Source: Crocinitomicaceae bacterium
GTDB lineage: Bacteria > Bacteroidota > Bacteroidia > Flavobacteriales_D > Crocinitomicaceae
Reading direction: 5' to 3'
Assembly (NCBI GenBank): GCA_017983465.1
Contig: JAGOBK010000007.1
Coordinates: forward strand, 33,685-97,684
DNA length: 64,000 nucleotides
A program made the translations under genes and the position numbers. Shown here in pieces: positions 3,422 through 50,311 of this stretch. Each line of letters opens with the position of its first letter. The stretch's first letter is position 1. Under the pieces are notes generated by a model. It did not search any database. It saw only the letters and a program-made list of their open reading frames with translations, and was not told the DNA's origin.

Positions 3422-4190
3422 CGTAGGATTCTATTATTCCATTTTTCCATGAACACATTTCCAATTGTTTTCCATCGAATCGAGCAAAGGTTTGAGCGTA
3501 TAACCATTCACCAGTATTGAGGTAAACAGCTTGGTCAATAGTCAATTCTAATGGCAAATGTCGGTGTCCAAAAATATAGTAGTCTTGCGGATTTGTTTTT
3601 TGATGTTCAACAGCGAAGTGATACAGCCATTCCTTTTCTTTTCCCGAATAGATCATGTCCTTCGCCATTCCACTTTTGCGGCTGCTACGGGAGAAAAAAT
3701 TCGCTAATGAAATTCCGAAATTCGGATGAATGCGGGCAAAAGCCCATTGACACAATGGATTTCTAAAAACACGTTTGATGAACTTGTATTTATAATCACC
3801 CGGACCTAATCCATCACCGTGAGCGACAAAAAATCGTTTGCCATTTTTCTCAAAGCAATATTCATCGGCATGTAATTGAACGCCTAATTCTTCTTGAAAG
3901 TAGTGGAACATCCACATATCGTGGTTCCCTTTGAAGAAATGCACAGGAATCCCTTTGTCAACAAGTCCAGCGATTTTCGCTTGCAAACGGACGAATCCTT
4001 TTGGAATAACGGTTTTGTATTCAAACCAGAAGTCAAAGATGTCACCAATTAAAAAAATTTCTTCGGCATCTTTTTCAATGCATTCAAGCCAAGCCACGAT
4101 AGCTGACTCGCGTTCTCGACTTTTAGCTAAATCAGGAGTGCCCAGATGGAAATCTGAAGCAAAATACGTGTATTTAGCCGTAACGTCCAT
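3402..4190 (-). CDS. lpxH: UDP-2,3-diacylglucosamine diphosphatase (LpxH-type metallophosphoesterase)
   Basis: 262 aa. SDFHLG, GDIFDFWFEY, GNHD and GHRH calcineurin-like motifs in LpxH order. Confidence 0.8.
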   Translation of the reverse strand: MDVTAKYTYFASDFHLGTPDLAKSRERESAIVAWLECIEKDAEEIFLIGDIFDFWFEYKTVIPKGFVRLQAKIAGLVDKGIPVHFFKGNHDMWMFHYFQEELGVQLHADEYCFEKNGKRFFVAHGDGLGPGDYKYKFIKRVFRNPLCQWAFARIHPNFGISLANFFSRSSRKSGMAKDMIYSGKEKEWLYHFAVEHQKTNPQDYYIFGHRHLPLELTIDQAVYLNTGEWLYAQTFARFDGKQLEMCSWKNGIIESYDAKRPN

Positions 4191-5302
4191 TAATGACCAA
4201 AAATGCGTTTTAACTCTTCTTCCAAAGCTGGACCTCTTAAATTCGTTTTGATCACATGTCCTTCACGATCGATAAGTACCGTAAATGGAACACTTGAAAC
4301 TTTGTATAATTGAGCAACTTTGCTATTCCATCCTCCTAAATCACTTACGTGATTTGGCCATGATAATTGATCTTGTTCAATGGCGTTTTTCCATTTTTGT
4401 GCGTCGGTATCTAGAGAAACACTTACAATGGTAAATCCATCTTTTTTATATTTTTCGTATGTCTGAACCACATTTGGGTTTTCTCTGCGACAAGGACCAC
4501 ACCACGACGCCCAGAAATCAATGAGTACAATTTGTCCATGCAAAGAAGAAAGGGTCAAGGTCTTTTTTCCATCTGTTTTTAACTCTGTAAAATCAGGAGC
4601 GATTTTCCCAGGCGCTAAAAAGTTTGCATCCTCGATGCGTTTTTTGATTTGGGAGAAATGATTGTAGAATGATTGCACGGTTGGACTTTCATTAAAAACA
4701 GCATACAATTGATTCAGTACGTTTTCATAGGATGCCATATCCTGTTCAGCATTCATATTCGCCAATGCAAGTATTAAAACGGGTGAATTTGCGTTGGCTC
4801 CGATAAAACCTTGAAGTTCACTATTGAATTTATAAAACTCTTGGGTCATGTAGTCATTCACCGCCTGCTCGCGAGAAGGATCCGCTTTGATCGCTGTTAA
4901 TGCAGAATCACTTTTTGCTGTCCATTTTTCCGCAACATGGGAAAAGTCATTCATTGCTTTTGATTCATCTGAACCAACGAAATTGCAAAAGTCCTTCAGT
5001 TTTTTTCCGTCACCGTATACCTTGATGTCACTATTGTTTTTCAAAATAAGGTGAATGTTGTCATTTCCAACGCGTAGGTAATAGTAATCTGGATTCGGTA
5101 ATTCAAGGGTAAGTTTAAAATTCCCTTTTTTATCCATGGCCGCAGATCCGTAGTCTTTGTAAGCATTCCCGAAGTTTTGAGAAATTCGAACAGAATCTAC
5201 ATTAGCGTTAAAGATCATGCCTGAAACAGTCACTTTAATGGCTTTTTGACCAAATATTCCAAACGGAAAAAAGGCTAAAAGTATAATTCCTAAGTTTTTC
5301 AT
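4190..5302 (-). CDS. TlpA-like thiol:disulfide oxidoreductase with N-terminal beta-rich domain
   Basis: 370 aa. Signal peptide. C-terminal thioredoxin fold with DFWASWCGPCRRENP. Confidence 0.8.
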   Translation of the reverse strand: MKNLGIILLAFFPFGIFGQKAIKVTVSGMIFNANVDSVRISQNFGNAYKDYGSAAMDKKGNFKLTLELPNPDYYYLRVGNDNIHLILKNNSDIKVYGDGKKLKDFCNFVGSDESKAMNDFSHVAEKWTAKSDSALTAIKADPSREQAVNDYMTQEFYKFNSELQGFIGANANSPVLILALANMNAEQDMASYENVLNQLYAVFNESPTVQSFYNHFSQIKKRIEDANFLAPGKIAPDFTELKTDGKKTLTLSSLHGQIVLIDFWASWCGPCRRENPNVVQTYEKYKKDGFTIVSVSLDTDAQKWKNAIEQDQLSWPNHVSDLGGWNSKVAQLYKVSSVPFTVLIDREGHVIKTNLRGPALEEELKRIFGH

Positions 5303-6495
5303 TTTAAAAGTTCGTTTAAGGTTTCTTCTAATTTTTCACCACGAAGGTTTTTTCCAATGATCTTTCCTTCTTTGTTCAAAAGAACGGTATATGGAATCCC
5401 TTCTATGCCAAAGTTTGCAACAACGGAGGATTTCCATCCTTTCAAATCACTTACATGGTTTGTCCAAGTGAGTTTATCTTTAACAATGGCTTCTTTCCAT
5501 TTCGTAGCATCTTCATCTAAGGAAACAGAATAGATCGTAAATCCTTTGTCCTTAAATTTTTCATACATTTTCACAACGTTCGGATTCTCTGCTCGACATG
5601 GTCCACACCACGACGCCCAGAAATCTACAAGAACAACCTTCCCTTTGAGGTCTGATAGTTTCAAGATTTTCCCTGATGGATTGGTTAAGGCAATTTCGGG
5701 AGCTGGAACGGTACCATTGACAGATGAAGCAAATTCAAAATAGGCATTTTCAATTTGTGCATATTGATTTCTGAACGTCTCAGCTGCTGGTTGACCAGCA
5801 TATTTATCTTCAAACGCTTCGGTTACCTTTTTCAGTGCTTCCAAATTTGTTGCGTCCCAATCATCAAAACTAACACTTGGAAGCAAGTCCATGGAAAGAA
5901 TGATGTTGTATGCATTGCTTGGGTCTTTTAGCATGTGTATTCTGGAAAAAGATTCCATTTTACTTTTGGCTTGAAGGAAAAGTTTGGAAACTTCTTCCTT
6001 ACTGCGGTTTTCAGCGTTTAACTGCAAGCGAGCTTGGGTTTGTTGAAACGCATCGAATTCACTTAAATAGCGATTCATGGTTTTGCTCCAACTTGTTCCA
6101 CCTGCATTCGGTTTGGAAACGAAGGAACTTACGGAAGTGTTGATGGTCAAATGATCTCCCGGAATAAGGGTGATTGGAATTAAGCTGTTTTTTTCATCGC
6201 TCAATCTCAAGAAATAATACCCCAAACCTGGAATATTTCCGCTAATGTTAAAACTTCCATCCTCATTGATTTGTCCCTCAGCTACAGGAATTGTTCCTTT
6301 GTCACTTGGAGCTTCGATAAACAAAGTCAAACCGGGAACACCTGTAATTTTTCCTGATATTTCAAAATTCGCTTCAAGTCCACCGGTTTCTGCTAAGTCT
6401 TTTTGGTATTTGTTGTACCAAATAATACTACCAACTAGTGCGACAATAGCCACAAGGATTACCCAGGTTTTATTTTTGATTATCCAATCTTTCAT
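5299..6495 (-). CDS. TlpA-like thiol:disulfide oxidoreductase (tandem paralogue)
   Basis: 398 aa. N-terminal TM anchor. DFWASWCGPCRAENP. Same domain order as the neighbouring gene. Confidence 0.8.
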   Translation of the reverse strand: MKDWIIKNKTWVILVAIVALVGSIIWYNKYQKDLAETGGLEANFEISGKITGVPGLTLFIEAPSDKGTIPVAEGQINEDGSFNISGNIPGLGYYFLRLSDEKNSLIPITLIPGDHLTINTSVSSFVSKPNAGGTSWSKTMNRYLSEFDAFQQTQARLQLNAENRSKEEVSKLFLQAKSKMESFSRIHMLKDPSNAYNIILSMDLLPSVSFDDWDATNLEALKKVTEAFEDKYAGQPAAETFRNQYAQIENAYFEFASSVNGTVPAPEIALTNPSGKILKLSDLKGKVVLVDFWASWCGPCRAENPNVVKMYEKFKDKGFTIYSVSLDEDATKWKEAIVKDKLTWTNHVSDLKGWKSSVVANFGIEGIPYTVLLNKEGKIIGKNLRGEKLEETLNELLK

Positions 6496-7952: not shown

Positions 7953-8765
7953 TTAGATGCGGGAGATTAGTTCTTTCATGATTTGAGTCATTTTCGGCTC
8001 TTGACGACTAGCCACTTCAATAACGTCTTGAACACTCACTTTTTTGATTTTTCCAGGTACCCCTAAGTCTGTGATGATGGAAATAGCAAAACAAGGAATG
8101 CTCATATGTCGAGCAACGATTACTTCAGGAACAGTTGACATTCCAACAGCATCAGCGCCAATTACGCGTACGTATTTGTATTCGGATGGCGTTTCCAATG
8201 TTGGACCAGTAAGTCCTGCGTAACATCCAACAGATACTTTGATGGACATTTCTTCGGCAATTGTTTTTGCTATTTGAATCATGGATTCATCGTATGGATC
8301 ACTCATATCTGGAAAACGTGGACCTAATTCGTCGATGTTTTTACCAATCAATGGATTTCCGGGAAATAAATTGATGTGGTCGTTCATAATCATGATTTCT
8401 CCTACCGCGAAGTCTGGATTCACACCACCTGAAGCATTGCTCACAAAAAGTCGCTCAATGCCTAATAATTTCATGACACGAACGGGAAAAGTTACTTGTT
8501 GTAAATCATAACCCTCGTAATAGTGAAAACGTCCTTGCATCGCGACAACATTTTTTCCGCCAAGGCGACCAAAAATGAGTTTTCCAGAGTGACTTTCCAC
8601 TGTTGATACAGGGAAATTTGGAATGGTTTCGTATGGAATTTCGTCCACGATTTCGATTTCTTTCACGAGTCCACCTAGACCTGTTCCTAAAATAATTCCA
8701 ATCGTTGGTTGAATACTTGTTTTGGCTTGAATAAATGCCGCTGTTTCTTTAATTGCTTGTAACAT
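7953..8765 (-). CDS. purine nucleoside phosphorylase (trimeric PunA type)
   Basis: 270 aa. GRFHYYEGY, VSNASGG and GMSTVPE motifs. Confidence 0.85.
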   Translation of the reverse strand: MLQAIKETAAFIQAKTSIQPTIGIILGTGLGGLVKEIEIVDEIPYETIPNFPVSTVESHSGKLIFGRLGGKNVVAMQGRFHYYEGYDLQQVTFPVRVMKLLGIERLFVSNASGGVNPDFAVGEIMIMNDHINLFPGNPLIGKNIDELGPRFPDMSDPYDESMIQIAKTIAEEMSIKVSVGCYAGLTGPTLETPSEYKYVRVIGADAVGMSTVPEVIVARHMSIPCFAISIITDLGVPGKIKKVSVQDVIEVASRQEPKMTQIMKELISRI

Positions 8766-9771
8766 AATCTTTTATCATCGAGTTAAACGCTTCTTCTTCC
8801 GCCATTTTTACGGTAATTGGAAGAACATACCAAGGATAGGTTTGTCGATCATGTTCAGATAGAAGTCCTTGGATTTTCACGAGGTCCTTTTCTGTTGTGA
8901 TGATGGCCATTTCCTTGCTTGCAAAGGTATCAAATTTTCTGTGAATTTCTTGGATATCTCCACGTGTAAACGAGTGATGGTCACCAAATTTAAGTTCCTC
9001 CACTTCATAAGATTCCATCAAGTGACTTTTCAAGGATGTCGAAGTAGAGATTCCAGTTACTAATAACACCGATTTCATTTGCTCTATTGGTGTCCCTACA
9101 GCTTGAAAATCAGCGTATTCGATTCTGGAGAAAAAAACTGGTTTTTCGTAATCTTCATAGCGTTTTCGATGAAACATCATCTCATCTTCCGTTAGATTCG
9201 GACATTTAGTTAAAATGATGGCATCCGCACGATGAGCACCTTGTTTGGATTCTCTTAGGTTTCCAGAAGGCAAGTGCCAATCGTATAGGAATTGCTCGTG
9301 AAATGGAGTTAACAATAGTTGTAGTCCGGGTTGTACATATCGGTGCTGAAAAGCATCGTCCAAAATAATGATTGCTGCAGCATTCATTTCCTTCATTCGG
9401 ACAATCGCATGTTGACGTTTTTCGCACACAAACACATCCGTTTTTGGCGCAAATTTCTGAAAGTAGGAAAGTGGCTCGTCACCTACCGAGGCTGCATTAT
9501 CTGTGCTGTTAAGTAGTCTAAAACCTTTTGTTTTACGACCATAGCCGCGACTAAGAATTTGAATGGAATGTTCGTTCTGTAAAAGGGAAGTCAAATAAAT
9601 GACCATCGGTGTTTTTCCAGTTCCGCCAACGGATAAATTGCCTACTGAAATCGATTTACCTGGAATGATGGTTGATTTCAGAACACCCACATCAAAGAGG
9701 ATATTCCGAGTATATGTGATGAGCCAATATAAAATCGTAAAGGGAAGTAGTCCGATTTTTCTCATCCTCAA
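8749..9771 (-). CDS. lpxK: tetraacyldisaccharide 4'-kinase
   Basis: 340 aa. P-loop VGNLSVGGTGKTP, SRGYGRK and ILDDAFQH motifs. Confidence 0.88.
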   Translation of the reverse strand: MRMRKIGLLPFTILYWLITYTRNILFDVGVLKSTIIPGKSISVGNLSVGGTGKTPMVIYLTSLLQNEHSIQILSRGYGRKTKGFRLLNSTDNAASVGDEPLSYFQKFAPKTDVFVCEKRQHAIVRMKEMNAAAIIILDDAFQHRYVQPGLQLLLTPFHEQFLYDWHLPSGNLRESKQGAHRADAIILTKCPNLTEDEMMFHRKRYEDYEKPVFFSRIEYADFQAVGTPIEQMKSVLLVTGISTSTSLKSHLMESYEVEELKFGDHHSFTRGDIQEIHRKFDTFASKEMAIITTEKDLVKIQGLLSEHDRQTYPWYVLPITVKMAEEEAFNSMIKDYVTSN

Positions 9772-9780
9772 AGATACGCT

Positions 9781-10455
9781 TTATTGGTTGTTGTAGTCCG
9801 AAAAAGCTTGATCGTTTGCAAAATAATAAATGCGTATTAAAGCTGTATCGTTTAAAAAGTCAATCTTGCCAATCTCTACTCGGTTGATGGATAAACCTGT
9901 TCGTTTTTCCAAATCTGCTTTCATTTCCTCGTATTTGTCCGGCGTAATCAAATCGATGCGTTCGTAATTGATTGTCTTGCGGGTTTCGTGTTTCATCAAC
10001 CAAAGATTCTCCAAAATGAAGGTCAGTAAAATCACCGATACATTGATCACTGCTACCTCTGAAACACTTAATTCATTAGATGCAAGTGCATTCACTACAC
10101 TTATTCCGATGATCATGAACAAGTAGGTCATCTCCTTAATTTCGATGGCATCCGTACGGTAGCGGATAATTCCAAAAATAGCGAATAATCCGAGCCCCAT
10201 TCCTGTGTCAATGTCCATTTGCATCAATCCGAAACACAAGAAAAACGTAATCGTTCCAATTAAGTAATACGTGAATAAATAATCCTTACGCTGCGTTTTT
10301 GGGTAATACAAAAAGCGAATTAAGATGGTTAAAAACAGCAAATTGATACCAAGACGGACAAGCAACACATAAAAGTCATCACTAAACCAAGTCAGAGTTG
10401 AACTGCTCAACGCAGCTTTTTTTAATGGCAGAAGTAGGGAATTAAATAGCATCAT
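9781..10455 (-). CDS. DUF4956-like polytopic membrane protein
   Basis: 224 aa. About 4 hydrophobic helices. GLFAIFGIIRYRT and EMTYLF motifs. Soluble C-terminal tail of about 75 aa. Overlaps the upstream gene by 14 nt. Confidence 0.7.
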   Translation of the reverse strand: MMLFNSLLLPLKKAALSSSTLTWFSDDFYVLLVRLGINLLFLTILIRFLYYPKTQRKDYLFTYYLIGTITFFLCFGLMQMDIDTGMGLGLFAIFGIIRYRTDAIEIKEMTYLFMIIGISVVNALASNELSVSEVAVINVSVILLTFILENLWLMKHETRKTINYERIDLITPDKYEEMKADLEKRTGLSINRVEIGKIDFLNDTALIRIYYFANDQAFSDYNNQ

Positions 10456-11200
10456 GGTTTATTTTCTTTAAATAAAGTAATTTTTTCTTGAAACGGTTGA
10501 ATTTTAATTTGTCCTCGCCGTAAATTTCCACGGATCCAAGGCAATATTTGCTTAAACGATAAGGACGAATTCGTTGTTCTTTCATTAATTGATAGAAAAC
10601 GGAATTTCGATTGAGGTCCTCTTGCTTTAATTCGGCGATGACGAGTTGTTTGAATGATTTCTTTACTCCGTCTTTTTCAAAAAGTATGTTAAAGTCAAGA
10701 GTTAATCGTTCGTTCTCTGTTTTTGAAACCAAAGTGATTCGCTGAAAGGAATTCCACATGGTTGGCACCAAATTTTTATTGGCTTGTAGTTCATTTTGGA
10801 CAAACGCGAGGTCGCTTTCTGGAAGTACTTCATTAAATTGATCGGTGACAATTCGTTTTTTGTCCGTACGGCCTTTTATTTTATGTTTTATCTCTAAAAA
10901 AAACAGATTTGATTCGACATATTTTCGAATGCGCACCTTGAAACGATCTCCTTTTCCATTGTGATGATCTCTAAAAAACGAAAAGCGTTCGTCATCGAAA
11001 TACAGACTTTCGTAATGAGGTGTATTTGTACCCTCGATAGTTAGAACACGGTAGTTTAACGTGAGCAAAGGAAGTAGTGTGTTGAGATCGCTGAAACGGA
11101 AAGCAAATTTGGTGTCCATTCGATTCATCAACTTTACACGATCCATTTCTTGTAAAGTGATGGGTTCAAATGGGTCTAGTAATTCCTTGATTTCGTTCAT
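10442..11200 (-). CDS. VTC-domain (triphosphate tunnel metalloenzyme, polyphosphate-polymerase-like) protein
   Basis: Start re-set to ATG 11200 (M33 of the tracked ORF), which has a TAACTTTG box 11 nt upstream. Charged beta-strand motifs RMDTKF, YFDD, KVRIRKY, LEIKHK, AELK and SKY. Confidence 0.7.
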
Positions 11201-11211
11201 AGATGTTAAGC

Positions 11212-11219
11212 CAAAGTTA
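11212..11219 (-). promoter_or_regulatory. Bacteroidota -7 promoter box TAACTTTG (VTC/DUF4956 array)
   Basis: Exact match to TAnnTTTG, 11 nt upstream of ATG 11200. Confidence 0.45.
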
Positions 11220-11303
11220 ACAAAATTTGTTTTCCTTTTCCTGACTTGGATGTCTAATGTCAGGAATACTTGTTTCTTCATTGAAAAGTTTTTCATGTTT
11301 CAC

Positions 11304-25496: not shown

Positions 25497-26273
25497 TTAA
25501 ATCATTCCTCGAATTACGCCTTTATCAGAAGCTTGTATAAATCCAACGATTTCATCACGTAAAGGTGTTTTATCCATGCTTTGCAGCACTGCATCGATAC
25601 CTTTCGACAAGTTGCTATTTTGCACATAAATCGTGCGGTAGATATCTTCGATTTCGCGTACTTGCTCATCTGAATACCCTCTTCTTCTCAATCCCACTGA
25701 ATTCACACCTGCAAAAGTAAGTGGCTCTCGAGCCGCTTTGATGTAGGGAGGGACATCTTTACGAATGAGTGATGCTCCACCAATAAAAGCGTGTTTTCCA
25801 ATATGAGCGAATTGTTGTGCCGCCACTTTTCCTTCAAGAATGGCAAAATCATCGATGATGACATGTCCAGAAAGTCCAGTATAACTCGCTAAAATCACGT
25901 TGTTGCCAATTTGACAATCATGCGCAATGTGTACGTAAGTCATCAAAAGACAATTGTCTCCAACAGAGGTTTTCATTTTATCACTTGTGCCACGGTGAAT
26001 CGTCACGCATTCACGGATTTTCGTGTTGTTGCCAATTTCGACAGTTGTGTATTCATTGTCGAATTTCAAATCCTGAGGGATAACACCAACTACTGCTCCT
26101 GGGAAAACTTCACAATCCTCACCAATTCGTGTACCGGGATACAAAGCTACATTTGAATGAATTCTCGTTCCATTTCCAATGATGACATCCTCGTGAATGA
26201 CAGCGAATGGATCAATTCGGACGTTTTGTCCAATCTGGGCATCTTTCGAGACCGAGGCTAAAGATGAAATCAT
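25497..26273 (-). CDS. lpxA: acyl-ACP--UDP-GlcNAc O-acyltransferase
   Basis: 258 aa. Left-handed beta-helix hexapeptide repeats plus the helical LpxA C-terminal domain. Confidence 0.88.
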   Translation of the reverse strand: MISSLASVSKDAQIGQNVRIDPFAVIHEDVIIGNGTRIHSNVALYPGTRIGEDCEVFPGAVVGVIPQDLKFDNEYTTVEIGNNTKIRECVTIHRGTSDKMKTSVGDNCLLMTYVHIAHDCQIGNNVILASYTGLSGHVIIDDFAILEGKVAAQQFAHIGKHAFIGGASLIRKDVPPYIKAAREPLTFAGVNSVGLRRRGYSDEQVREIEDIYRTIYVQNSNLSKGIDAVLQSMDKTPLRDEIVGFIQASDKGVIRGMI

Positions 26274-27674
26274 TTATTCTTTGTCTTTAATAATTTGTGC
26301 GAGCATACTTGCTTCGGAAACAACTTTTCCATTTACATATGCTTTACCACTCATTTCCACTAATCCACGTCGGATCGGTGATGTCAATACCAATTCAAAT
26401 ACAACTGTATCTCCAGGCATTACTTTTTGTTTAAATCGCACATTGTCGATTTTCATGAAATACGTAGAATACAAATGTGGATCCTCGACTTTCGTTAAAG
26501 CGAAAATACCACCAACTTGTGCCATTGCCTCAATTTGCAAAACACCTGGAAAAACTGGATTACCAGGGAAGTGTCCAGTGAATTGAGGTTCGTTCATAGT
26601 GATATTTTTCACACCTAAGATCGAGTTTTCCTGTATTTCAATGATCTTATCGACCATTAAAAATGGATATCTATGTGGTAAAATACGTTCAATATCATTG
26701 ATATCGTATACCGGATCTTTGGTTAAATCGAAATGACGTCCTTGATTTTGTTGTTTTTTAATCTGCTCTTTCAACACTTTTGCAAAACGAACATTCCCAG
26801 AATGTCCGGGACGTGCAGCTAAAATGTGTGCTTTGATCGGTTTCCCAACTAAGGCTAAGTCACCGACAATGTCTAACAGTTTATGGCGAGCTGGCTCATT
26901 TTCGTACTGAAGTTTCGTGCTATTCAACACCCCAATTCCATCAATGGATACTTGAAGTTTATCTTTCCCTAACAATTTTGCCAGGCGATCCAATTCTTCT
27001 TGTGCGACTTCTGGACGATCAACCAAAACAATTGCATTGTCCAAGTCTCCTCCTTTGATGAGGTTGTTACTTGCTAAATATTCTAGTTCTCTTAGAAATA
27101 CAAATGTTCTACATTTTGCAATTTCCTTTTTAAAATCACCAAGTTGGTACATGCTTGCATGCTGTGTTCCTAGAACTGGTGAATTGTAGTCAACCATCAC
27201 CGTTAAACGATAATTGACATCTGGAATCGCTAAGAATTCAATTCCTTTTTCCAGGTCTTCCCATGGAATGTTCTCATTTAATTCAAAATAATCTCTATCA
27301 GCAGTTTGATCTTCGAATCCAACGCGTTCAATTTCATTGACAAAAAGAATCGCACTTCCATCCATGATTGGAATTTCAGGCCCGTTGATTTTGATCAGTG
27401 CATTGTCCACTTGACATGCGTACAAGGCTGCAAGCACATGCTCAGTTGTATACACACGTGCACCATGTTGCTCAAGTGTAGTACCACGGTCAGTCGCTAC
27501 AACATAGTCCACATCGGCTTTGATAATTGGTTGATTTTCTAAGTCAACACGTTGAAATTTATATCCATGATTATCAGCAGCTGGACAAATTTCCATTGTT
27601 ACCGCTTCTCCTGTATGGAGTCCAACCCCGTTAAAAACAATGGATTCTTTGAGTGTGCGTTGTTTTTCTGTCAT
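26274..27674 (-). CDS. lpxC/fabZ: bifunctional UDP-3-O-acyl-GlcNAc deacetylase / 3-hydroxyacyl-ACP dehydratase
   Basis: 466 aa. N-terminal LpxC (GVGLHTGE, HKLLD). C-terminal FabZ hot-dog (HFPGNPVFPGVL). This fusion is typical of Bacteroidota. Confidence 0.92.
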   Translation of the reverse strand: MTEKQRTLKESIVFNGVGLHTGEAVTMEICPAADNHGYKFQRVDLENQPIIKADVDYVVATDRGTTLEQHGARVYTTEHVLAALYACQVDNALIKINGPEIPIMDGSAILFVNEIERVGFEDQTADRDYFELNENIPWEDLEKGIEFLAIPDVNYRLTVMVDYNSPVLGTQHASMYQLGDFKKEIAKCRTFVFLRELEYLASNNLIKGGDLDNAIVLVDRPEVAQEELDRLAKLLGKDKLQVSIDGIGVLNSTKLQYENEPARHKLLDIVGDLALVGKPIKAHILAARPGHSGNVRFAKVLKEQIKKQQNQGRHFDLTKDPVYDINDIERILPHRYPFLMVDKIIEIQENSILGVKNITMNEPQFTGHFPGNPVFPGVLQIEAMAQVGGIFALTKVEDPHLYSTYFMKIDNVRFKQKVMPGDTVVFELVLTSPIRRGLVEMSGKAYVNGKVVSEASMLAQIIKDKE

Positions 27675-27679
27675 TCTGT

Positions 27680-28720
27680 TTATTTTTTCATGAGTTCTTT
27701 AAACTGTCTTTCGAACTCATTTATTTTAGATAGGATAAATGGTAATTTTCTAAATCCGATGTAGGAACGTTTGAAATCGTTGTGGTTAAATGCAGGAGAC
27801 CCCATCAGTGTGTCCGCAGATTTTATCGTGGAAGGAATTCCAGATTGCGCAACGATTTTTGTATCATCCGCGATGTGCAAGTGTCCTGCGATTCCTGTTT
27901 GACCACCAATCATGACATGCTTGCCAATTTTAGCGGAACCAGCGATTCCAACTTGCGCAGCCATTGCTGTGTGCTGATCTACATCCACATTGTGTGCAAT
28001 TTGACATAAGTTGTCAATTTTAACACCTTTACGGATGTATGTCGAGCCCATTGTTGCTCGGTCTATGGAACAATTGGATCCGATTTCTACGTCATCCTCA
28101 ATGATGACATTCCCAATTTGAGGAATTTTTTGATAAACGCGATGTTCATCCGGCGCATAACCAAATCCATCTGAACCAATTACTGTTCCCGAGTGGATGA
28201 TCACATTGTTGCCAATTTGACAATCTGCATAAATGCTCACATTCGCGAAAAGAATGGAGTTGTCGCCAATTTGAACATGATCACCTAAGACAACATTTGG
28301 ATAGATTTGAACATTGTTACCGATTTTCACGTGCTTACCAATATAGGCGAAAGCTCCAATGTAAGGATCGCTTCCAACTGTTGCTGAATCGTGAATAAAA
28401 GATGGTTGTTCTATCTCCGGCTCTTTGCGATTCATGCTATTGTAAATCTCCAATAATTTCGCAAAGCATGCATAAGCATCGTCTACACGAATAAGCGTCA
28501 ATGTTGTAGGTAGCGCTTTCGAAGGACTGAACGTTTTATTGACAATACAAATGCTGGATCCAGTTGTATAGATGAATTCCTCGTATTTAGGATTGGAAAG
28601 AAAACTCAAAGAACCTTCGTTTCCTTCTTCAATTTTGGCTAGTCCATTGACACTGGCAGATGGATTCCCATCAACATCTCCTTGTAAAAGGCCAGCGATT
28701 TGTTCGGCTGTAAATTCCAT
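27680..28720 (-). CDS. lpxD: UDP-3-O-acylglucosamine N-acyltransferase
   Basis: 346 aa. MEFTAEQIAGLL N-terminus and a long hexapeptide-repeat helix. Confidence 0.9.
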   Translation of the reverse strand: MEFTAEQIAGLLQGDVDGNPSASVNGLAKIEEGNEGSLSFLSNPKYEEFIYTTGSSICIVNKTFSPSKALPTTLTLIRVDDAYACFAKLLEIYNSMNRKEPEIEQPSFIHDSATVGSDPYIGAFAYIGKHVKIGNNVQIYPNVVLGDHVQIGDNSILFANVSIYADCQIGNNVIIHSGTVIGSDGFGYAPDEHRVYQKIPQIGNVIIEDDVEIGSNCSIDRATMGSTYIRKGVKIDNLCQIAHNVDVDQHTAMAAQVGIAGSAKIGKHVMIGGQTGIAGHLHIADDTKIVAQSGIPSTIKSADTLMGSPAFNHNDFKRSYIGFRKLPFILSKINEFERQFKELMKK

Positions 28721-45557: not shown

Positions 45558-47732
45558 TTATTTCGTTGGTTTCACTTTAACATCTGTTCCAAGTCGCTGC
45601 AAGTAGGCAATAATCGCAACGATGTCCTTCTGTTCGATTTCTTTAATCAAATCGTTTTTGTTTCGTCCCTTCAAGGCAATTTGATTGGTCGTATTCACGA
45701 TGTCTAATGCAATCAGATGTGCTTGAGCTTGAAGATCCTTTTTCGCTTTCTTATCATATCCCTCTGGATAAGGAACACCTAGCGTTTGCATTGCACGGAT
45801 TTTCGCACCGATGTTTTCAATATCCATATCGTCTTCACGCATCCATGGATATGCAGGCATGATGGATCCTGGAGTAATGACTTTTGGACGAATCATGTGG
45901 TTAAAGTGCCATAGGTTTCCACGAACGCCTCCTTCACGTGCCAAATCTGGACCAGTTCGTTTTGAGCCCCATTGGAATGGATGATCGTAAACGAATTCAC
46001 CGGATTTTGAATAAGCTCCGTAGCGTACTGTTTCAAAGCGCAATGGTCGAATTAACTGTGAGTGACAATTGTAACATCCTTCACGGATGTAAATATCTCG
46101 TCCATACAATTCAAGTGGCGTGTACGGTTTCACACTTTTAATGGTTGGAACATTGCTTTTAACGATCATCGTTGGAATGATCTCCACAATTCCACCAATG
46201 GCAACAATGACTAAACTGAGGATCATGAATTGAATTGGTTTACGTTCGATGACCTTGTGCCAATATTCTCCTTTCGTATTGACGTGTAATTCTTTGGTTA
46301 CAACTGCTTCTGTTTCTTCATTGGCAACTAATTTTCCAGATTTTGCTGTTTTCACTAAGTTGTAGAACATCAGGATGGCGCCACTTAGGTATAATAAACC
46401 TCCAAGAGATCTTAGATAGAAGAATGGTTTCATTTCAATGACAGTATCGACAAAGTTGTTCGCTAATGTTCCGTCTGGTTTGAATTCCTGCCACATTAAT
46501 CCTTGCATGAATCCGGCGATATACATTGGAATCGCATAAAGAATGATTCCTAAAGTGGCAATCCAGAAATGTTGGTTTGCCATTTTTGTAGAATACAATT
46601 TTGTGTTGTACAAACGAGGGAACAACCAATACAACATACCGAAGGTTAACATACCATTCCATCCTAGTCCACCGATGTGTACGTGAGCGATAGTCCAATC
46701 TGTAAAGTGAGAAATGACATTGATGTTTTTCAAAGAAAGCAATGGTCCTTCAAAGGTGGACATTCCATAACATGTTAATGCGACCACCATGAATTTCAAC
46801 AAAATATCATCGCGAACACGGTCCCAAGCTCCTCTTAAGGTAAGTAATCCATTCAACATTCCACCCCAAGACGGAGCGATTAACATGACAGAAAAGACAA
46901 CGCCCAAACTTTGCGCCCAATCCGGAAGGGTAGAGTACAATAAATGGTGTGGTCCAGCCCAGATGTACAAGAAAATCAAGGCCCAAAAGTGAATAATTGA
47001 TAAACGGTAAGAGTAAACTGGACGATTTGCAGCTTTCGGTACGAAGTAATACATCAAGCCCAAATACGGTGTAGTCAAGAAGAAGGCAACGGCATTGTGT
47101 CCATACCACCATTGAACCAATGCGTCTTGAACTCCGGCGTACCAAGAGTAGCTTTTTAAGAAAGAAACAGGTAATTCAAAGGAGTTGAAAATGTGCAGCA
47201 TCGCAACGGTTACGAATGTTGCAATGTAGAACCAAATGGCCACGTAAAGGTGTTTCACACGTCGAACCATGATCGTCGCGAACATGTTCCATCCCCAAAC
47301 TACCCAAATTCCAGCAATCATGATGTCGATCCACCATTCTAACTCTGCATATTCTTTTCCAGTGGTAATCCCGAAGGGCAATGTTGCAACCGCACAAACG
47401 ATGATTGTTTGCCATCCCCAGAAATGAATTTTACTGAGTTTGTCACTCCACAACCTCGTTTTTAACAAGCGCTGAAGGGAATAGTAAATTCCCATGAACA
47501 TTCCATTTCCAACAAAGGCAAAGATGACAGCATTGGTGTGAAGTGGACGCAAACGTCCAAAAGTCAGGTATTTAAATCCTAAATAGTCATTGAAAAATTC
47601 CGGAAATGCCAGCTGTAGTGCGGCGATTAATCCAACCAACATTCCTGTTACACCCCAAATAACAGTGGCGTAGGCAAAATTCCGAACGATTCGGTTGTCG
47701 TAACTAAACTTTTCTGCTTCCATATTACTCAT
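45558..47732 (-). CDS. ccoNO: cbb3-type cytochrome c oxidase, fused subunits I and II
   Basis: 724 aa. Haem-copper core with about 12 TM helices, followed by CcoO with CYNCH. Confidence 0.92.
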   Translation of the reverse strand: MSNMEAEKFSYDNRIVRNFAYATVIWGVTGMLVGLIAALQLAFPEFFNDYLGFKYLTFGRLRPLHTNAVIFAFVGNGMFMGIYYSLQRLLKTRLWSDKLSKIHFWGWQTIIVCAVATLPFGITTGKEYAELEWWIDIMIAGIWVVWGWNMFATIMVRRVKHLYVAIWFYIATFVTVAMLHIFNSFELPVSFLKSYSWYAGVQDALVQWWYGHNAVAFFLTTPYLGLMYYFVPKAANRPVYSYRLSIIHFWALIFLYIWAGPHHLLYSTLPDWAQSLGVVFSVMLIAPSWGGMLNGLLTLRGAWDRVRDDILLKFMVVALTCYGMSTFEGPLLSLKNINVISHFTDWTIAHVHIGGLGWNGMLTFGMLYWLFPRLYNTKLYSTKMANQHFWIATLGIILYAIPMYIAGFMQGLMWQEFKPDGTLANNFVDTVIEMKPFFYLRSLGGLLYLSGAILMFYNLVKTAKSGKLVANEETEAVVTKELHVNTKGEYWHKVIERKPIQFMILSLVIVAIGGIVEIIPTMIVKSNVPTIKSVKPYTPLELYGRDIYIREGCYNCHSQLIRPLRFETVRYGAYSKSGEFVYDHPFQWGSKRTGPDLAREGGVRGNLWHFNHMIRPKVITPGSIMPAYPWMREDDMDIENIGAKIRAMQTLGVPYPEGYDKKAKKDLQAQAHLIALDIVNTTNQIALKGRNKNDLIKEIEQKDIVAIIAYLQRLGTDVKVKPTK

Positions 47733-47956: not shown

Positions 47957-50311
47957 TTATTCCAATCCTCGCCAATACTTGAAATGAATCAAGCTGGAAC
48001 TGAGAAAGACAACCGTTATGGAACTAATGGGCATTAAGATTGCCGCCACGATTGGTGATAGGGATGCGGAAATCGCAAAGGAAAGACCGATCAAGTTATA
48101 GGTAATAGAAAATCCGAGGCATACTTTTAACACGACTTTTGCGTACGTAGAAACTTGAAAAAACCGAGCGAGCAAATGAACATGCTTCGCATCTAAAATG
48201 GCATCAGAGGATGGGGTAAAACGAAACATGTCCTCCGATAAGGCAATACCGACATTCGCTGTTCCCAATGCGCCAACATCGTTAAGTCCATCACCCAACA
48301 TGAGGACTTTTTCACCTAATTTCTGTCTTTCTGCAATAAATGCAGCTTTGTCTTTTGGTTCCTGTTTGAAAAAACACTGATCCGCATGGAAGCCGAGTGA
48401 GATTAATTCGGGTAAGTCTTTCTCATCATCTCCTGAGAGGACAAAAATGCGTTTGTCAGTCAATTGTCCTAATACCGAAGAAACGGAAGCGCGAAAAGCA
48501 CTCTTGATGTGAATTTCTTGAATTACTTTTCCATCTTGAGCAAAAAATACGGTACCGTTTTCAGTTGAAGAAGAGACAGCTCCAACAAATGCAGAGCTTC
48601 CCAATTGATAGGATTTCTCATTGTATGTTGCTTGAATACCTTTTCCTTTGTGTTCGATGAAATGAGTGAGTTTTATAACGTGATTTTTGTCCTTCAACTG
48701 TTGATGAATTAATTTGGACAAGGGATGAGTGGAGTGGCTTGATAGCTCTCTCAAAACGTGCCATAATTCCTCGGTCATATTTTCATCTGAGAAATGGACT
48801 TGATGAGCCATTGGATCAGTCAAGGTGCCTGTTTTATCAAAAATGATGGTCGTGATTTCACTGAGTGCTTCTACAACTGTGGTGTTTTTTAAGTATAATC
48901 CATTTTTACCCAGAACACTCAGGGTATTTCCCAAAGTAAAAGGACTCGACAATGCAAGGGCGCAGGGACAAGCAACAATTAAAATGGAAACGATGACCGT
49001 CATGATTTTACTCGGATCGATGAAAGCCCATGTAATACCTGCAACGATGGCCACCATGATCAAAATGAGTAAAAAGTAGCGAGAGATTCGATCTTGGTAT
49101 CGTTCAAGAGTGTTGGATTCTTTTTTATCCTTGGTTTCGTTCCATAATTGGGTTAAATGGCTGCGGTTGGTTTCTGATTTCACCGCCAATTCAATGCTCA
49201 TTCCGATTAACTTTCCACCAGCATAGATCAAATCTCCTTTTTTCTTAGTGACTAAGGCCGATTCACCTGTGACAAAACTAAAGTCAAGTTGTGCTTCATC
49301 TGAAACTAAAATGCTATCACATGGAATGATTTCTTCATTTCTGACTTGAATTCGATCCCCTTCTTTCAGTTGCTCGATGGGAATGATTTCTGACCCTTTT
49401 TCAGAAATACGGTGAATAGCCACCGGAAAATAAGAAGAATAATCGCGGTCAAAGGAAAGCGACTGATACGTTCTATTTTGAAACCATTTTCCAATCAACA
49501 GGAAGAAAATGAATCCGGCAAAGCTATCCATGTATCCAGGTCCTTGCTGTGTGAAAATCTGATAGGTGCTTTGTGCGTAAAGGGCGAGTATTCCTAAGGT
49601 AATTGGTACATCTAAGTTGATGCTTCGACTTCGAACGGCTTTATAAGCGGATAAATAATATTCATTAGCGGAATAAAGAAAAACGGGCAATGACACAATG
49701 AAGGACAAATACGCCGTGAAATTCCGGAAGGATAAATTATCCAAGGTGATGCCAAAATAATCGGGCGCGCTCCAAAGCATGATGCTTCCAAAGGCAAATC
49801 CCGCAAGTCCAATTTTCAATAAAAATGATTTTTGAATCCCTTTTGCTTCTGTTTTTCGTCCAAAATCAGGCTCGTAACCGATGAATTGCAACAAATCGGC
49901 AATTTCGGAAAGGGAAATGGCATTTCGATCAAAAACAATGGTCGCTTCTTTTTTGGCGAAATGCACCTGAGAAGTGAGGACTTGGTTATTTATTTTGGAT
50001 AAATTTTCAAGAAGGTAAATACACGAAGAACAGTGAATGCTTGGTAAGGATAATTTTACACGGGCAATTTTTTCATCTTCGTATTGAATGTAACGAGCGC
50101 GAATTTCAGGAATATCTAAAAATTGGAATTTATCGCTGCGTCCTTTGTTTGGTTTGATTCCAGGTGTTTTCTCAAATTGGTAAAAATCCTTCAGGGAATT
50201 TGAATTCAACAAGGAATAAACGTTGGCGCAACCTTGACAACAAAATTCTTTTTGATCGAGTAGGATGGAAGGAGTTGGAAGGACATCTCCGCAGTGGTAA
50301 CAATTTTCCAT
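47957..50311 (-). CDS. ccoI: copper-translocating P-type ATPase CcoI/FixI
   Basis: 784 aa. N-terminal CYHCG...CCQGC metal-binding domain, HMA CSSC, CPC, DKTGT and GDGLND motifs. Confidence 0.9.
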   Translation of the reverse strand: MENCYHCGDVLPTPSILLDQKEFCCQGCANVYSLLNSNSLKDFYQFEKTPGIKPNKGRSDKFQFLDIPEIRARYIQYEDEKIARVKLSLPSIHCSSCIYLLENLSKINNQVLTSQVHFAKKEATIVFDRNAISLSEIADLLQFIGYEPDFGRKTEAKGIQKSFLLKIGLAGFAFGSIMLWSAPDYFGITLDNLSFRNFTAYLSFIVSLPVFLYSANEYYLSAYKAVRSRSINLDVPITLGILALYAQSTYQIFTQQGPGYMDSFAGFIFFLLIGKWFQNRTYQSLSFDRDYSSYFPVAIHRISEKGSEIIPIEQLKEGDRIQVRNEEIIPCDSILVSDEAQLDFSFVTGESALVTKKKGDLIYAGGKLIGMSIELAVKSETNRSHLTQLWNETKDKKESNTLERYQDRISRYFLLILIMVAIVAGITWAFIDPSKIMTVIVSILIVACPCALALSSPFTLGNTLSVLGKNGLYLKNTTVVEALSEITTIIFDKTGTLTDPMAHQVHFSDENMTEELWHVLRELSSHSTHPLSKLIHQQLKDKNHVIKLTHFIEHKGKGIQATYNEKSYQLGSSAFVGAVSSSTENGTVFFAQDGKVIQEIHIKSAFRASVSSVLGQLTDKRIFVLSGDDEKDLPELISLGFHADQCFFKQEPKDKAAFIAERQKLGEKVLMLGDGLNDVGALGTANVGIALSEDMFRFTPSSDAILDAKHVHLLARFFQVSTYAKVVLKVCLGFSITYNLIGLSFAISASLSPIVAAILMPISSITVVFLSSSLIHFKYWRGLE

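Follow-up and report, generated by a model that had tools for sequence, protein, structure and literature searches.

A VTC-domain protein encoded with a DUF4956 membrane protein: a candidate polyphosphate synthase in a freshwater Crocinitomicaceae bacterium

Two overlapping genes on the minus strand

We describe a pair of overlapping genes in a 64,000-nucleotide stretch of DNA (hereafter the window; contig JAGOBK010000007.1) from a freshwater member of the Crocinitomicaceae (Flavobacteriales). The first gene (10442..11200, minus strand) encodes a VTC-domain protein of 252 amino acids (aa), counted from the ATG at 11200, that carries neither a signal peptide nor a transmembrane segment. The second gene (9781..10455, minus strand) encodes a DUF4956 inner-membrane protein of 224 aa, with five predicted helices and a C-terminal soluble domain. 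A first-pass annotation of this DNA had placed a 14-nt overlap between the two, and the open reading frame (ORF) coordinates bear this out: the overlap covers 10442..10455 on the minus strand, with the VTC stop codon at 10442-10444 and the DUF4956 ATG at 10453-10455. This arrangement suggests that translation of the two proteins is coupled. Overlap or tight abutment of the two genes is also seen in related loci and in Shinella and Aminobacter, where the gene order is reversed. We propose that the two products may work together as a polyphosphate synthase docked at the membrane.

The VTC reading frame spans 10442..11296 on the minus strand and offers two possible starts, at 11296 (284 aa) or at 11200 (252 aa). 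We prefer the ATG at 11200 because relatives at 64-92% identity begin at the same Met, because the 32 codons upstream of it (11201..11296, minus strand) are not conserved, and because this choice leaves a 114-bp divergent spacer to purT that contains TAACTTTG. The optional N-terminal extension, which falls within this spacer, is probably not translated, to judge from the sequence comparison, and the Pfam match of the protein is the same with or without it. The TAACTTTG element (11212-11219, in the VTC-purT spacer) resembles the Bacteroidota -7 promoter element, and from this likeness it may serve as part of a promoter. A scan for sigma-70 promoters and terminators returned fewer sites than shuffled sequence, the sigma-70 model being uninformative for Bacteroidota.

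The window is an ordinary chromosomal stretch with 39% G+C and is ~93% identical over 20 kb to the metagenome-assembled genome (MAG) Ww9. On the same strand, lpxK comes next, 9 nt downstream of the pair, and then a purine nucleoside phosphorylase gene and gatB, while purT lies upstream in divergent orientation. Both genes of the pair are under strong purifying selection, with omega values of 0.02-0.10 for VTC and 0.01-0.02 for DUF4956. These values are as tight as that of the adjacent purine nucleoside phosphorylase, and tighter than that of lpxK (0.12).

The VTC-domain protein is predicted to form a triphosphate tunnel

The first-pass annotation had recognized a VTC-type triphosphate tunnel domain from a series of short charged motifs, all of which are present in the protein: RMDTKF at residues 27-32, YFDD at 67-70, KVRIRKY at 88-94, LEIKHK at 102-107, RTDKKR at 111-116, AELK at 189-192 and SKY at 217-219. 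Its family assignment is supported by the match to Pfam PF09359, which covers residues 26-222 of the protein and positions 1-230 of the 235 in the profile, with a score of 94.1 bits (E 1.2e-26) that is far above the curated cut-off of 23. The CYTH family (PF01928) gave no match to the VTC protein at E values up to 0.01, and strand β1 reads RMDTK, not ExExK. NCBIfam has no model for either the VTC protein or the DUF4956 protein. Sequence searches of the PDB, made with the single VTC protein or with a 26-sequence profile, did not reach Vtc4, the catalytic subunit of the yeast VTC complex; matches to GID4 in these searches (E 0.03-0.3) were taken as chance.

The structure of the VTC protein was predicted with AlphaFold2 (AF2) from a 26-sequence alignment, giving a predicted local distance difference test score (pLDDT) of 74 and a predicted template modeling score (pTM) of 0.75. 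The model is made up of long antiparallel strands and helices. When it was compared with the PDB by Foldseek, the nine best matches were all Vtc4 (3G3R, 3G3Q, 3G3T) or central domains of the VTC complex (E 6.5e-9 to 4.4e-7), with a probability of 1.00 and a template modeling (TM) score of ~0.59 for 3g3r/3g3q. About 30 other triphosphate tunnel metalloenzyme (TTM) structures were also matched at a probability of 1.00, and the lower-ranked hits included E. coli YgiF, AtTTM3, CYTH adenylate cyclases and thiamine triphosphatase, at E values of 5e-6 to 1e-3. On the strength of this model, the protein has the fold of a triphosphate tunnel, and its nearest solved relative is Vtc4. A structure search had been suggested in the first-pass annotation as a check on the tunnel fold, and in this search the Vtc4 catalytic domain ranked first.

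In a yeast cryo-electron microscopy study of Vtc4, K200, R264, R266, K281, R361, K458, S457 and Y359 bind triphosphate, and E426 binds Mn2+. Mutation of the eight triphosphate ligands lowers cellular polyphosphate in yeast, and R264A/R266A/E426N is the standard catalytically dead mutant of Vtc4. K458 is the sole residue that differs in the inactive paralogs Vtc2 and Vtc3, which have Ile or Leu at that position.

We mapped residues by hidden Markov model (HMM) alignment of a profile of diverse bacterial VTC proteins with Vtc4, using a reference catalytic-domain sequence that is 100% identical to PDB chains 5IIQ, 3G3Q and 8I6V, and we judged bacterial invariance on an alignment of 16 diverse bacterial VTC proteins. 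In the HMM alignment, K31 corresponds to Vtc4 K200, K88 to R264 (a conservative Arg to Lys change), R90 to R266, K105 to K281 and R154 to R361; R27 corresponds to R196, E103 to E279 and R165 to R373. Y359 is not kept, and F152 is found in its place. Two further positions were matched by motif only: E190 with E426 (IAELK versus LEVK), and S217-K218 (codons 10547..10552, minus strand) with S457-K458 (LSKYCLG versus FSKFIHG, inside the Pfam VTC match). Both motifs occur in the same order and in the same secondary-structure context as in Vtc4. Eight of the nine Vtc4 functional residues are kept in this count, one of them as Arg to Lys, and it includes the two motif-matched positions (E426 and S457-K458).

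K31, K88, R90, K105, R154, E190, S217 and K218 are all invariant in the 16 bacterial sequences. So too are the R27-M-D29-T-K31 segment of tunnel strand β1 (codons 11108..11122, minus strand) and the basic strand R86-F-K88-V-R90-I-R92 (codons 10924..10945, minus strand). The tunnel-lining basic residues on which the first-pass proposal had been staked are seen to be kept in the alignment to Vtc4. Judged by these sequence comparisons, it is reasonably probable that the VTC protein is a polyphosphate polymerase.

The C-terminal tail of the VTC protein (residues 220-252; window 10442-10543) is strongly basic and is conserved down to 37% identity, in a part that was modeled with low confidence. This tail, with a basic helix at residues 233-247, is a candidate for docking to the membrane or to DUF4956.

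The membrane partner carries an invariant arginine motif

The DUF4956 protein matches Pfam PF16316 over the full profile length (191.2 bits against a cut-off of 30.6, E 1.5e-56); the family comprises ~1,570 clusters at 50% identity. The first-pass annotation had counted about four helices in this protein, whereas its AF2 model (pLDDT 75) has five long hydrophobic helices, followed by a C-terminal β-α-β-β domain. This domain (residues ~155-213; 9817..9993, minus strand) is ACT-like and is predicted to be cytoplasmic. In Foldseek, the tail shows a weak local likeness to the ACT domains of aspartate kinase (probability 0.85, E ~0.4), and the Streptococcus intermedius homolog was independently described, in work on the pel operon of that species, as having four transmembrane segments and an intracellular ACT domain.

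The GLFAIFGIIRYRT motif, correctly quoted for the membrane protein in the first-pass annotation, occupies residues 89-101 (codons 10153..10191, minus strand), where helix 3 ends and a conserved loop starts. Across 70 DUF4956 representatives (29-57% identity), no residues other than R98 and R100 are invariant. These two lie in the motif GLFAIFGI-RYRT, after which come the conserved EMTYLF and N122. In a Pfam scan of these 70 proteins, neither DUF202, the membrane module of the eukaryotic VTC complex, nor MgtC was among the 25 families listed (of 65 matched, E up to 5).

The charge pattern of DUF4956 fits the positive-inside rule for an N-out, C-in protein with five spans, and at least 12 of 20 N-extended homologs have a cleavable signal peptide ahead of the core. 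Together, these two features point to an outward-facing N-terminus, with the RYRT loop and the tail inside. This predicted topology would put R98 and R100, along with R47, K53, R56, K57 and K107, on the cytoplasmic face, where the tunnel enzyme would dock.

Some apparent fusion proteins bear on this topology. The VTC+DUF4956 fusion cluster P0379 conflicts with an N-out arrangement, and a frameshift may have merged two overlapping genes in it. The clusters P0264 (DUF4956+CotH), P0279 and P0329 (both DUF4956+DUF2490) retain an internal signal-peptide-like segment. We rejected these three as true fusions because the internal segment indicates that they are probably merged neighboring ORFs, and all four clusters were counted as adjacency evidence only.

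The pair is conserved as a unit

The 79 related genome loci that we collected are all from Crocinitomicaceae, owing to narrow search patterns, and the wider breadth comes from look-ups of metagenomes, plasmids and contigs (loci are cited below by our labels, L059 to L172). DUF4956 directly follows VTC in all 79 of the Crocinitomicaceae loci. In 14 of them (L059-L062, L064-L072 and L074), the pair sits amid entirely different genes, without purT, lpxK or the purine nucleoside phosphorylase. Because the pair is kept when its flanks differ, we conclude that it moves as a unit and that its linkage to lpxK is local synteny.

This pattern extends beyond the family. Of 80 metagenome loci, in which DUF4956 is 48-84% identical, 75 have enough flank to judge, and in 73 of these the VTC gene is the immediate upstream neighbor on the same strand. 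Two metagenome loci have a solo DUF4956 gene, at L159 2551-3246 (near an M20 peptidase and citrate lyase) and at L167 1403-2053 (near a sulfatase and a LytTR regulator); DUF4956 can exist without an adjacent VTC gene. The pair is present in five of six contigs from other Bacteroidota, and it also occurs on large plasmids or chromids of Deinococcus (with CotH in one), Shinella, Aminobacter, Nitratireductor and Streptomyces. Gene order is reversed in the last four genera, and the genes still abut or overlap. Co-occurrence across Bacteroidota had been proposed as a check in the first-pass annotation, and these counts agree with what it had anticipated: the pair is near-obligate, being co-encoded in nearly every genome that has either gene. 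We consider it highly probable that VTC and DUF4956 form a physical or functional complex.

Genes flanking the pair in other lineages

Phosphate-related genes recur beside the pair in unrelated phyla. Downstream of the pair lie genes for an inorganic phosphate transporter and a phytase-like esterase in Nitratireductor, and phytase-like genes in Shinella and Aminobacter; in Deinococcus sp. QL22 its neighbors are an acid phosphatase gene and phnDCEE. These phosphate-acquisition genes of Alphaproteobacteria and Deinococcus, which include an HAD acid phosphatase, lie at L091 7393-10008, L088 7362-8300, L092 7345-8280 and L090 6920-11210. On a Pseudoalteromonas megaplasmid (L087 5754-5945 and 6572-7663), the gene after DUF4956 encodes an OprO/P phosphate-selective porin (PF07396, 2.4e-47). 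Of VTC, the last ~60 codons are all that is left upstream of DUF4956 there; a transposase is close by, and the locus looks decayed. The recurrence of phosphate-related neighbors in unrelated phyla counts in favor of a polyphosphate synthase.

Other recurrent neighbors belong to the envelope. A DUF2490 outer-membrane barrel adjoins the pair in 25 of the 80 metagenome loci (L093-L172) and in five of the six other Bacteroidota contigs, with DUF2490 genes directly after the pair at L080 8756-9436, L081 8593-9324, L082 8644-9324, L083 8724-9416 and L085 8629-9282. DUF2490 may be the outer-membrane leg of the VTC/DUF4956 system. CotH kinases occur in the same cassettes (L082 3460-5817; L086 3796-5124; and in L137, L145, L152, L157 and L160). 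One CotH protein has a type IX secretion C-terminal domain, and another (P0264) stands behind a lipoprotein signal sequence. The presence of exported CotH kinases beside a putative polyphosphate synthase raises the question of their phosphoryl donor.

A small ORF (131-163 aa) without a significant Pfam match lies directly upstream of VTC in five Bacteroidota contigs (L080 6810-7205; L081 6809-7237; L082 6742-7149; L083 6750-7241; L084 6834-7259). The three of these that we inspected (L080-L082) have a signal-peptide-like N-terminus.

In the window, the gene next to the pair is lpxK (8749-9771, minus strand), which is identified as LpxK by both Pfam and NCBIfam, and which we treat as context only and not as part of the system. 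The gapless array with lpxK had led the first-pass annotation to entertain an envelope role, and the 9-nt gap would be in keeping with a function in the envelope or in lipid A, as would the lipid A-related genes near the pair elsewhere, namely PagL (L064) and PAP2 with a PMT_2 glycosyltransferase (L084). However, of the 79 Crocinitomicaceae loci, 56 have lpxK after the pair (most of the other 23 end too soon to tell) and the 14 with different flanks keep the pair without it, and no other lineage examined has lpxK beside the pair. Gram-positive and Deinococcus hosts moreover carry the pair but have no lipid A. The lpxK-based envelope hypothesis is barely credible in the face of these distributions, and we rejected it, the linkage being local.

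Lipid A-related genes were seen near the pair in three unrelated contexts (window 8749-9771; L064 7434-8528, minus strand; L084 8895-11196), which may be chance, and most loci do not have them. Elsewhere in the window, lpxA, an lpxC-fabZ fusion and lpxD form a cluster at 25497-28720, 16 kb from lpxK, so lpxK is not in a lipid A operon here.

Comparison with known systems

The yeast VTC complex (Vtc4 with Vtc1, Vtc2/3 and Vtc5; PDB 3G3Q, 7YTJ, 8I6V) shares with the bacterial system its Pfam domain, the tunnel fold, and the aligned triphosphate ligands K200, R264/R266, K281 and R361, with the metal ligand E426 and S457-K458 matched by motif. In both cases, a cytoplasmic catalytic domain is combined with a membrane partner that bears conserved basic residues at the cytoplasmic face (in DUF4956, by the predicted topology). 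Unlike the yeast complex, the bacterial system has no SPX domain: only 25 residues precede the VTC domain, and no other Pfam domain is found even in the 284-aa reading. The bacterial catalytic protein also differs in having no transmembrane segment, and its partner is DUF4956, with five helices and an ACT-like tail, rather than the three-helix DUF202 module. In strand β1, the bacterial R-x-D-x-K contrasts with R-Q-T-T-K in Vtc4, and Tyr359 is Phe in the bacterial protein. By analogy, the system would work like VTC, yet it is not a VTC complex.

The same two families adjoin each other, together with CotH, in Gram-positive pel operons (S. intermedius SIR_1592-1594). The authors of the S. intermedius work inferred a Vtc4-like polymerase bioinformatically and proposed a cytoplasmic polymer, and they reported the CotH/VTC/DUF4956 trio only within pel operons (Whitfield et al., bioRxiv 768473; bioRxiv 10.1101/2024.04.20.589940). 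Unlike in those operons, the pair in the window stands alone in a Bacteroidota chromosome, without pel genes, CotH or DUF4832. In Clostridium perfringens, NELoc-2 contains two pairs of VTC and membrane protein genes adjoining CotH (PMC2879425).

Among the other relatives by fold, the TTM enzymes (YgiF, NeuTTM, AtTTM3, CyaB and thiamine triphosphatase) share the eight-stranded basic β-tunnel. They differ in having an ExExK two-metal site, in hydrolyzing or cyclizing their substrates, and in being soluble, without a dedicated membrane partner. The MgtC family resembles DUF4956 in architecture, with a membrane domain of five helices plus an ACT domain at the C-terminus, and MgtC has in Salmonella been linked to the homeostasis of phosphate and of ATP (a link cited in the S. 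intermedius work). MgtC is not paired with a tunnel enzyme, however, and the invariant RYRT is specific to DUF4956.

With PPK1 and PPK2, the pair would have in common its proposed product, polyphosphate made from a nucleoside triphosphate (NTP), and its proposed role in phosphate storage. Their folds and mechanisms are unrelated to those of VTC, PPK1 acting by way of a phospho-histidine intermediate and PPK2 being a P-loop kinase, and neither is known to need a membrane subunit. No PPK gene was found among the 20 ORFs scanned, the six longest included, of the 55 in the window with at least 100 aa.

The first-pass statement that the bacterial pairs have no experimentally defined function agrees with the literature, in which we found no biochemical or genetic demonstration. 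The polymerase idea itself is not entirely new: the NCBI product name is 'polyphosphate polymerase domain-containing protein', and the gene cluster has been noted in pel operons. A 2023 evolutionary review surveys VTC-domain proteins among eukaryotes only. A 2026 preprint describes extracellular polyphosphate in Bacillus cereus that is independent of PPK1 and PPK2, with no enzyme assigned and no VTC4 homolog there (bioRxiv 10.64898/2026.08.04.742738). This leaves room for further bacterial polyphosphate synthases, although the B. cereus case would need another enzyme.

A model for the pair and its alternatives

We propose a composite explanation, in which the VTC and DUF4956 proteins are a two-component, membrane-docked polyphosphate synthase for phosphate storage and homeostasis, and we put its probability at roughly 45%. 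By homology to Vtc4, the tunnel enzyme would bind a nucleoside triphosphate (ATP in Vtc4) and one divalent metal held by E190, and the γ-phosphate would be transferred onto the end of the polyphosphate chain as it grows, the chain leaving via the far end of the tunnel. The topology and the pattern of conservation suggest that the enzyme docks on a DUF4956 oligomer from the cytoplasmic side, where R98 and R100, with R47, K53, R56, K57 and K107, would make up a basic collar for the uptake of the anionic chain, and the ACT-like tail could act as a ligand sensor, standing in for the eukaryotic SPX domain.

In the least certain step of the model, DUF4956 would conduct the chain through the inner membrane, in the way that the transmembrane domains of VTC do in yeast. 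Taken by itself, this step is doubtful. Transport across the membrane is plausible by analogy to VTC and is favored by the outer-membrane barrels and the exported CotH kinases; in this lineage, which is without an outer-membrane partner, the periplasm would be the destination of the polymer. In other lineages, VTC and DUF4956 with a DUF2490 or OprO/P-type barrel might form an envelope-spanning machine that extrudes polyphosphate to the periplasm or surface, where it would store phosphate or metal, form part of a matrix, or act as the phosphoryl donor for secreted CotH. We regard this larger assembly as rather unlikely. The first-pass annotation had envisaged a two-component machine that polymerizes at the membrane or through it. 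The polymerizing part of that idea is strengthened by the Vtc4-like tunnel, its ligands and the co-conservation of the two genes, whereas coupling to a channel rests on analogy and gene context.

Several observations weigh against the proposed synthase. On the side of the enzyme, the confidence of the VTC model is only moderate (pLDDT 74), and the equivalences to E426 and K458 were drawn by motif, with no significant alignment covering that segment. An hhalign comparison of narrow bacterial profiles with Vtc4 aligned only β1 to β3, and Smith-Waterman alignments of C-terminal VTC segments with Vtc4 were no better than those of shuffled sequences. Y359, whose mutation to Phe lowers polyphosphate in yeast, is F152 in our protein, and this position is Phe, Cys or Tyr among bacterial homologs. 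In addition, β1 has an invariant acidic residue within R-x-[DE]-x-K (D29; Glu in Deinococcus), whereas Vtc4 has T198, and in sequence D29 recalls the metal-binding ExExK of tunnel hydrolases.

On the side of the membrane protein, a Foldseek comparison of the DUF4956 model with the PDB gave no significant channel match (best E 0.26, with MscS-like and ACT matches above 0.2). An hhalign comparison of the 70-sequence DUF4956 profile with verified Vtc1 returned a probability of 0.7%, and by sequence DUF4956 is unrelated to DUF202. Five helices and an ACT-like domain would suit a regulator no less than a conduit. By tblastn, neither DUF2490 nor CotH nor any of the small upstream ORFs was detected in the window or within 10 kb of the pair in the 79 related loci, and the lineage of the window has the two-gene core only. 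Transport is thus opposed both by the lack of channel homology and by the lack of an outer-membrane partner in this lineage. In S. intermedius, single deletions of the three homologs produced no clear phenotype (polyphosphate was not assayed), and we found no activity measurement of a bacterial VTC member in the literature.

Some of these points would be accommodated if polyphosphate were synthesized in the cytoplasm and kept there in granules, with DUF4956 acting as an anchor and allosteric regulator whose ACT-like domain senses a metabolite. Bacteria tolerate the cytoplasmic polyphosphate made by PPK1, and ACT domains are typically ligand-binding regulators. The DUF4956 model has no significant match to a solved channel or transporter, no outer-membrane partner lies near the pair in the lineage of the window, and the S. 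intermedius authors concluded likewise, comparing their protein to MgtC. Such an arrangement is possible without being probable: it leaves unexplained the recurrent outer-membrane barrels (DUF2490 in 25 of 80 loci, OprO/P once), the exported CotH kinases, and the fact that an arginine pair at the membrane interface is the most conserved feature of DUF4956, and MgtC is not among the Pfam families listed for the 70 diverse DUF4956 proteins.

Because Tyr359 is replaced by Phe and β1 has an invariant acidic residue two positions before the Lys (Asp, or Glu in Deinococcus) that resembles ExExK, a different tunnel chemistry stays a live rival. The enzyme would then be a tri- or polyphosphatase, or would make another NTP-derived product, with DUF4956 as its membrane partner or regulator, and it is true that YgiF, AtTTM3 and CYTH cyclases are also significant fold matches. 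However, the fold and Pfam comparisons rank Vtc4 first and do not detect CYTH, the first Glu of ExExK is replaced by Arg as in Vtc4 (R27, equivalent to R196), and the motif-matched equivalent of K458, a residue that is needed for the polymerase and absent from the inactive Vtc2/3, is invariant; we judge this chemistry unlikely. We find it more improbable still that the machine runs in reverse to scavenge phosphorus, with polyphosphate or phosphate entering via a porin and DUF4956 and the tunnel enzyme either making ATP from polyphosphate and ADP or hydrolyzing the chain. The neighbors in other phyla (the OprO/P porin, phosphate transporter, phytase-like esterases, acid phosphatase and phnDCEE) could be read in this way, as could the freshwater habitat of the host, lakes often being phosphorus-limited. 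Yet uptake genes would fit equally well with the storage of imported phosphate as polyphosphate, as in the yeast PHO regulon; VTC is only a remnant at the porin-bearing Pseudoalteromonas locus; and no TTM enzyme is known to run as a polyphosphate-driven kinase. A role in a defense system was also considered and rejected, as neither protein has a PADLOC match.

Other features of the window

The window contains further genes that we record as side observations. A 724-aa ORF at 45558-47732 joins COX1 and FixO/CcoO domains and resembles a fused cbb3-type oxidase, CcoNO. It adjoins a P-type ATPase with a cation-ATPase metal-binding domain (47957-50311). At 4190-6495, two paralogous-looking genes lie in tandem (370 and 398 aa); by Pfam, the first product has thioredoxin/redoxin domains and DUF4369, and a WCGPC motif can be read from the sequence of the second (398 aa).

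Implications

Bacterial polyphosphate is attributed to PPK1 and PPK2, and polymerases of the Vtc4 type are regarded as an invention of eukaryotes. If the VTC/DUF4956 pair is a membrane-docked polyphosphate synthase, it would be a third, unrelated bacterial enzyme for this polymer, found in Bacteroidota, Firmicutes, Actinomycetota, Deinococcota and Pseudomonadota, and DUF4956 would be an independent solution to the moving or anchoring of a long polyanion at a membrane. The value of the finding is tempered by the fact that the gene families are catalogued and that the polymerase inference is already contained in NCBI names and one preprint. Nonetheless, the pair is a real, well-conserved and experimentally tractable candidate, and it is not peculiar to this window. 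It would provide a candidate prokaryotic relative of the eukaryotic enzyme and a handle on polyphosphate that is PPK-independent and extracellular; if the envelope-spanning assembly exists, it would itself be a PPK-independent source of extracellular bacterial polyphosphate. For the abundant freshwater Flavobacteriales, the synthase would be a possible factor in phosphorus storage.

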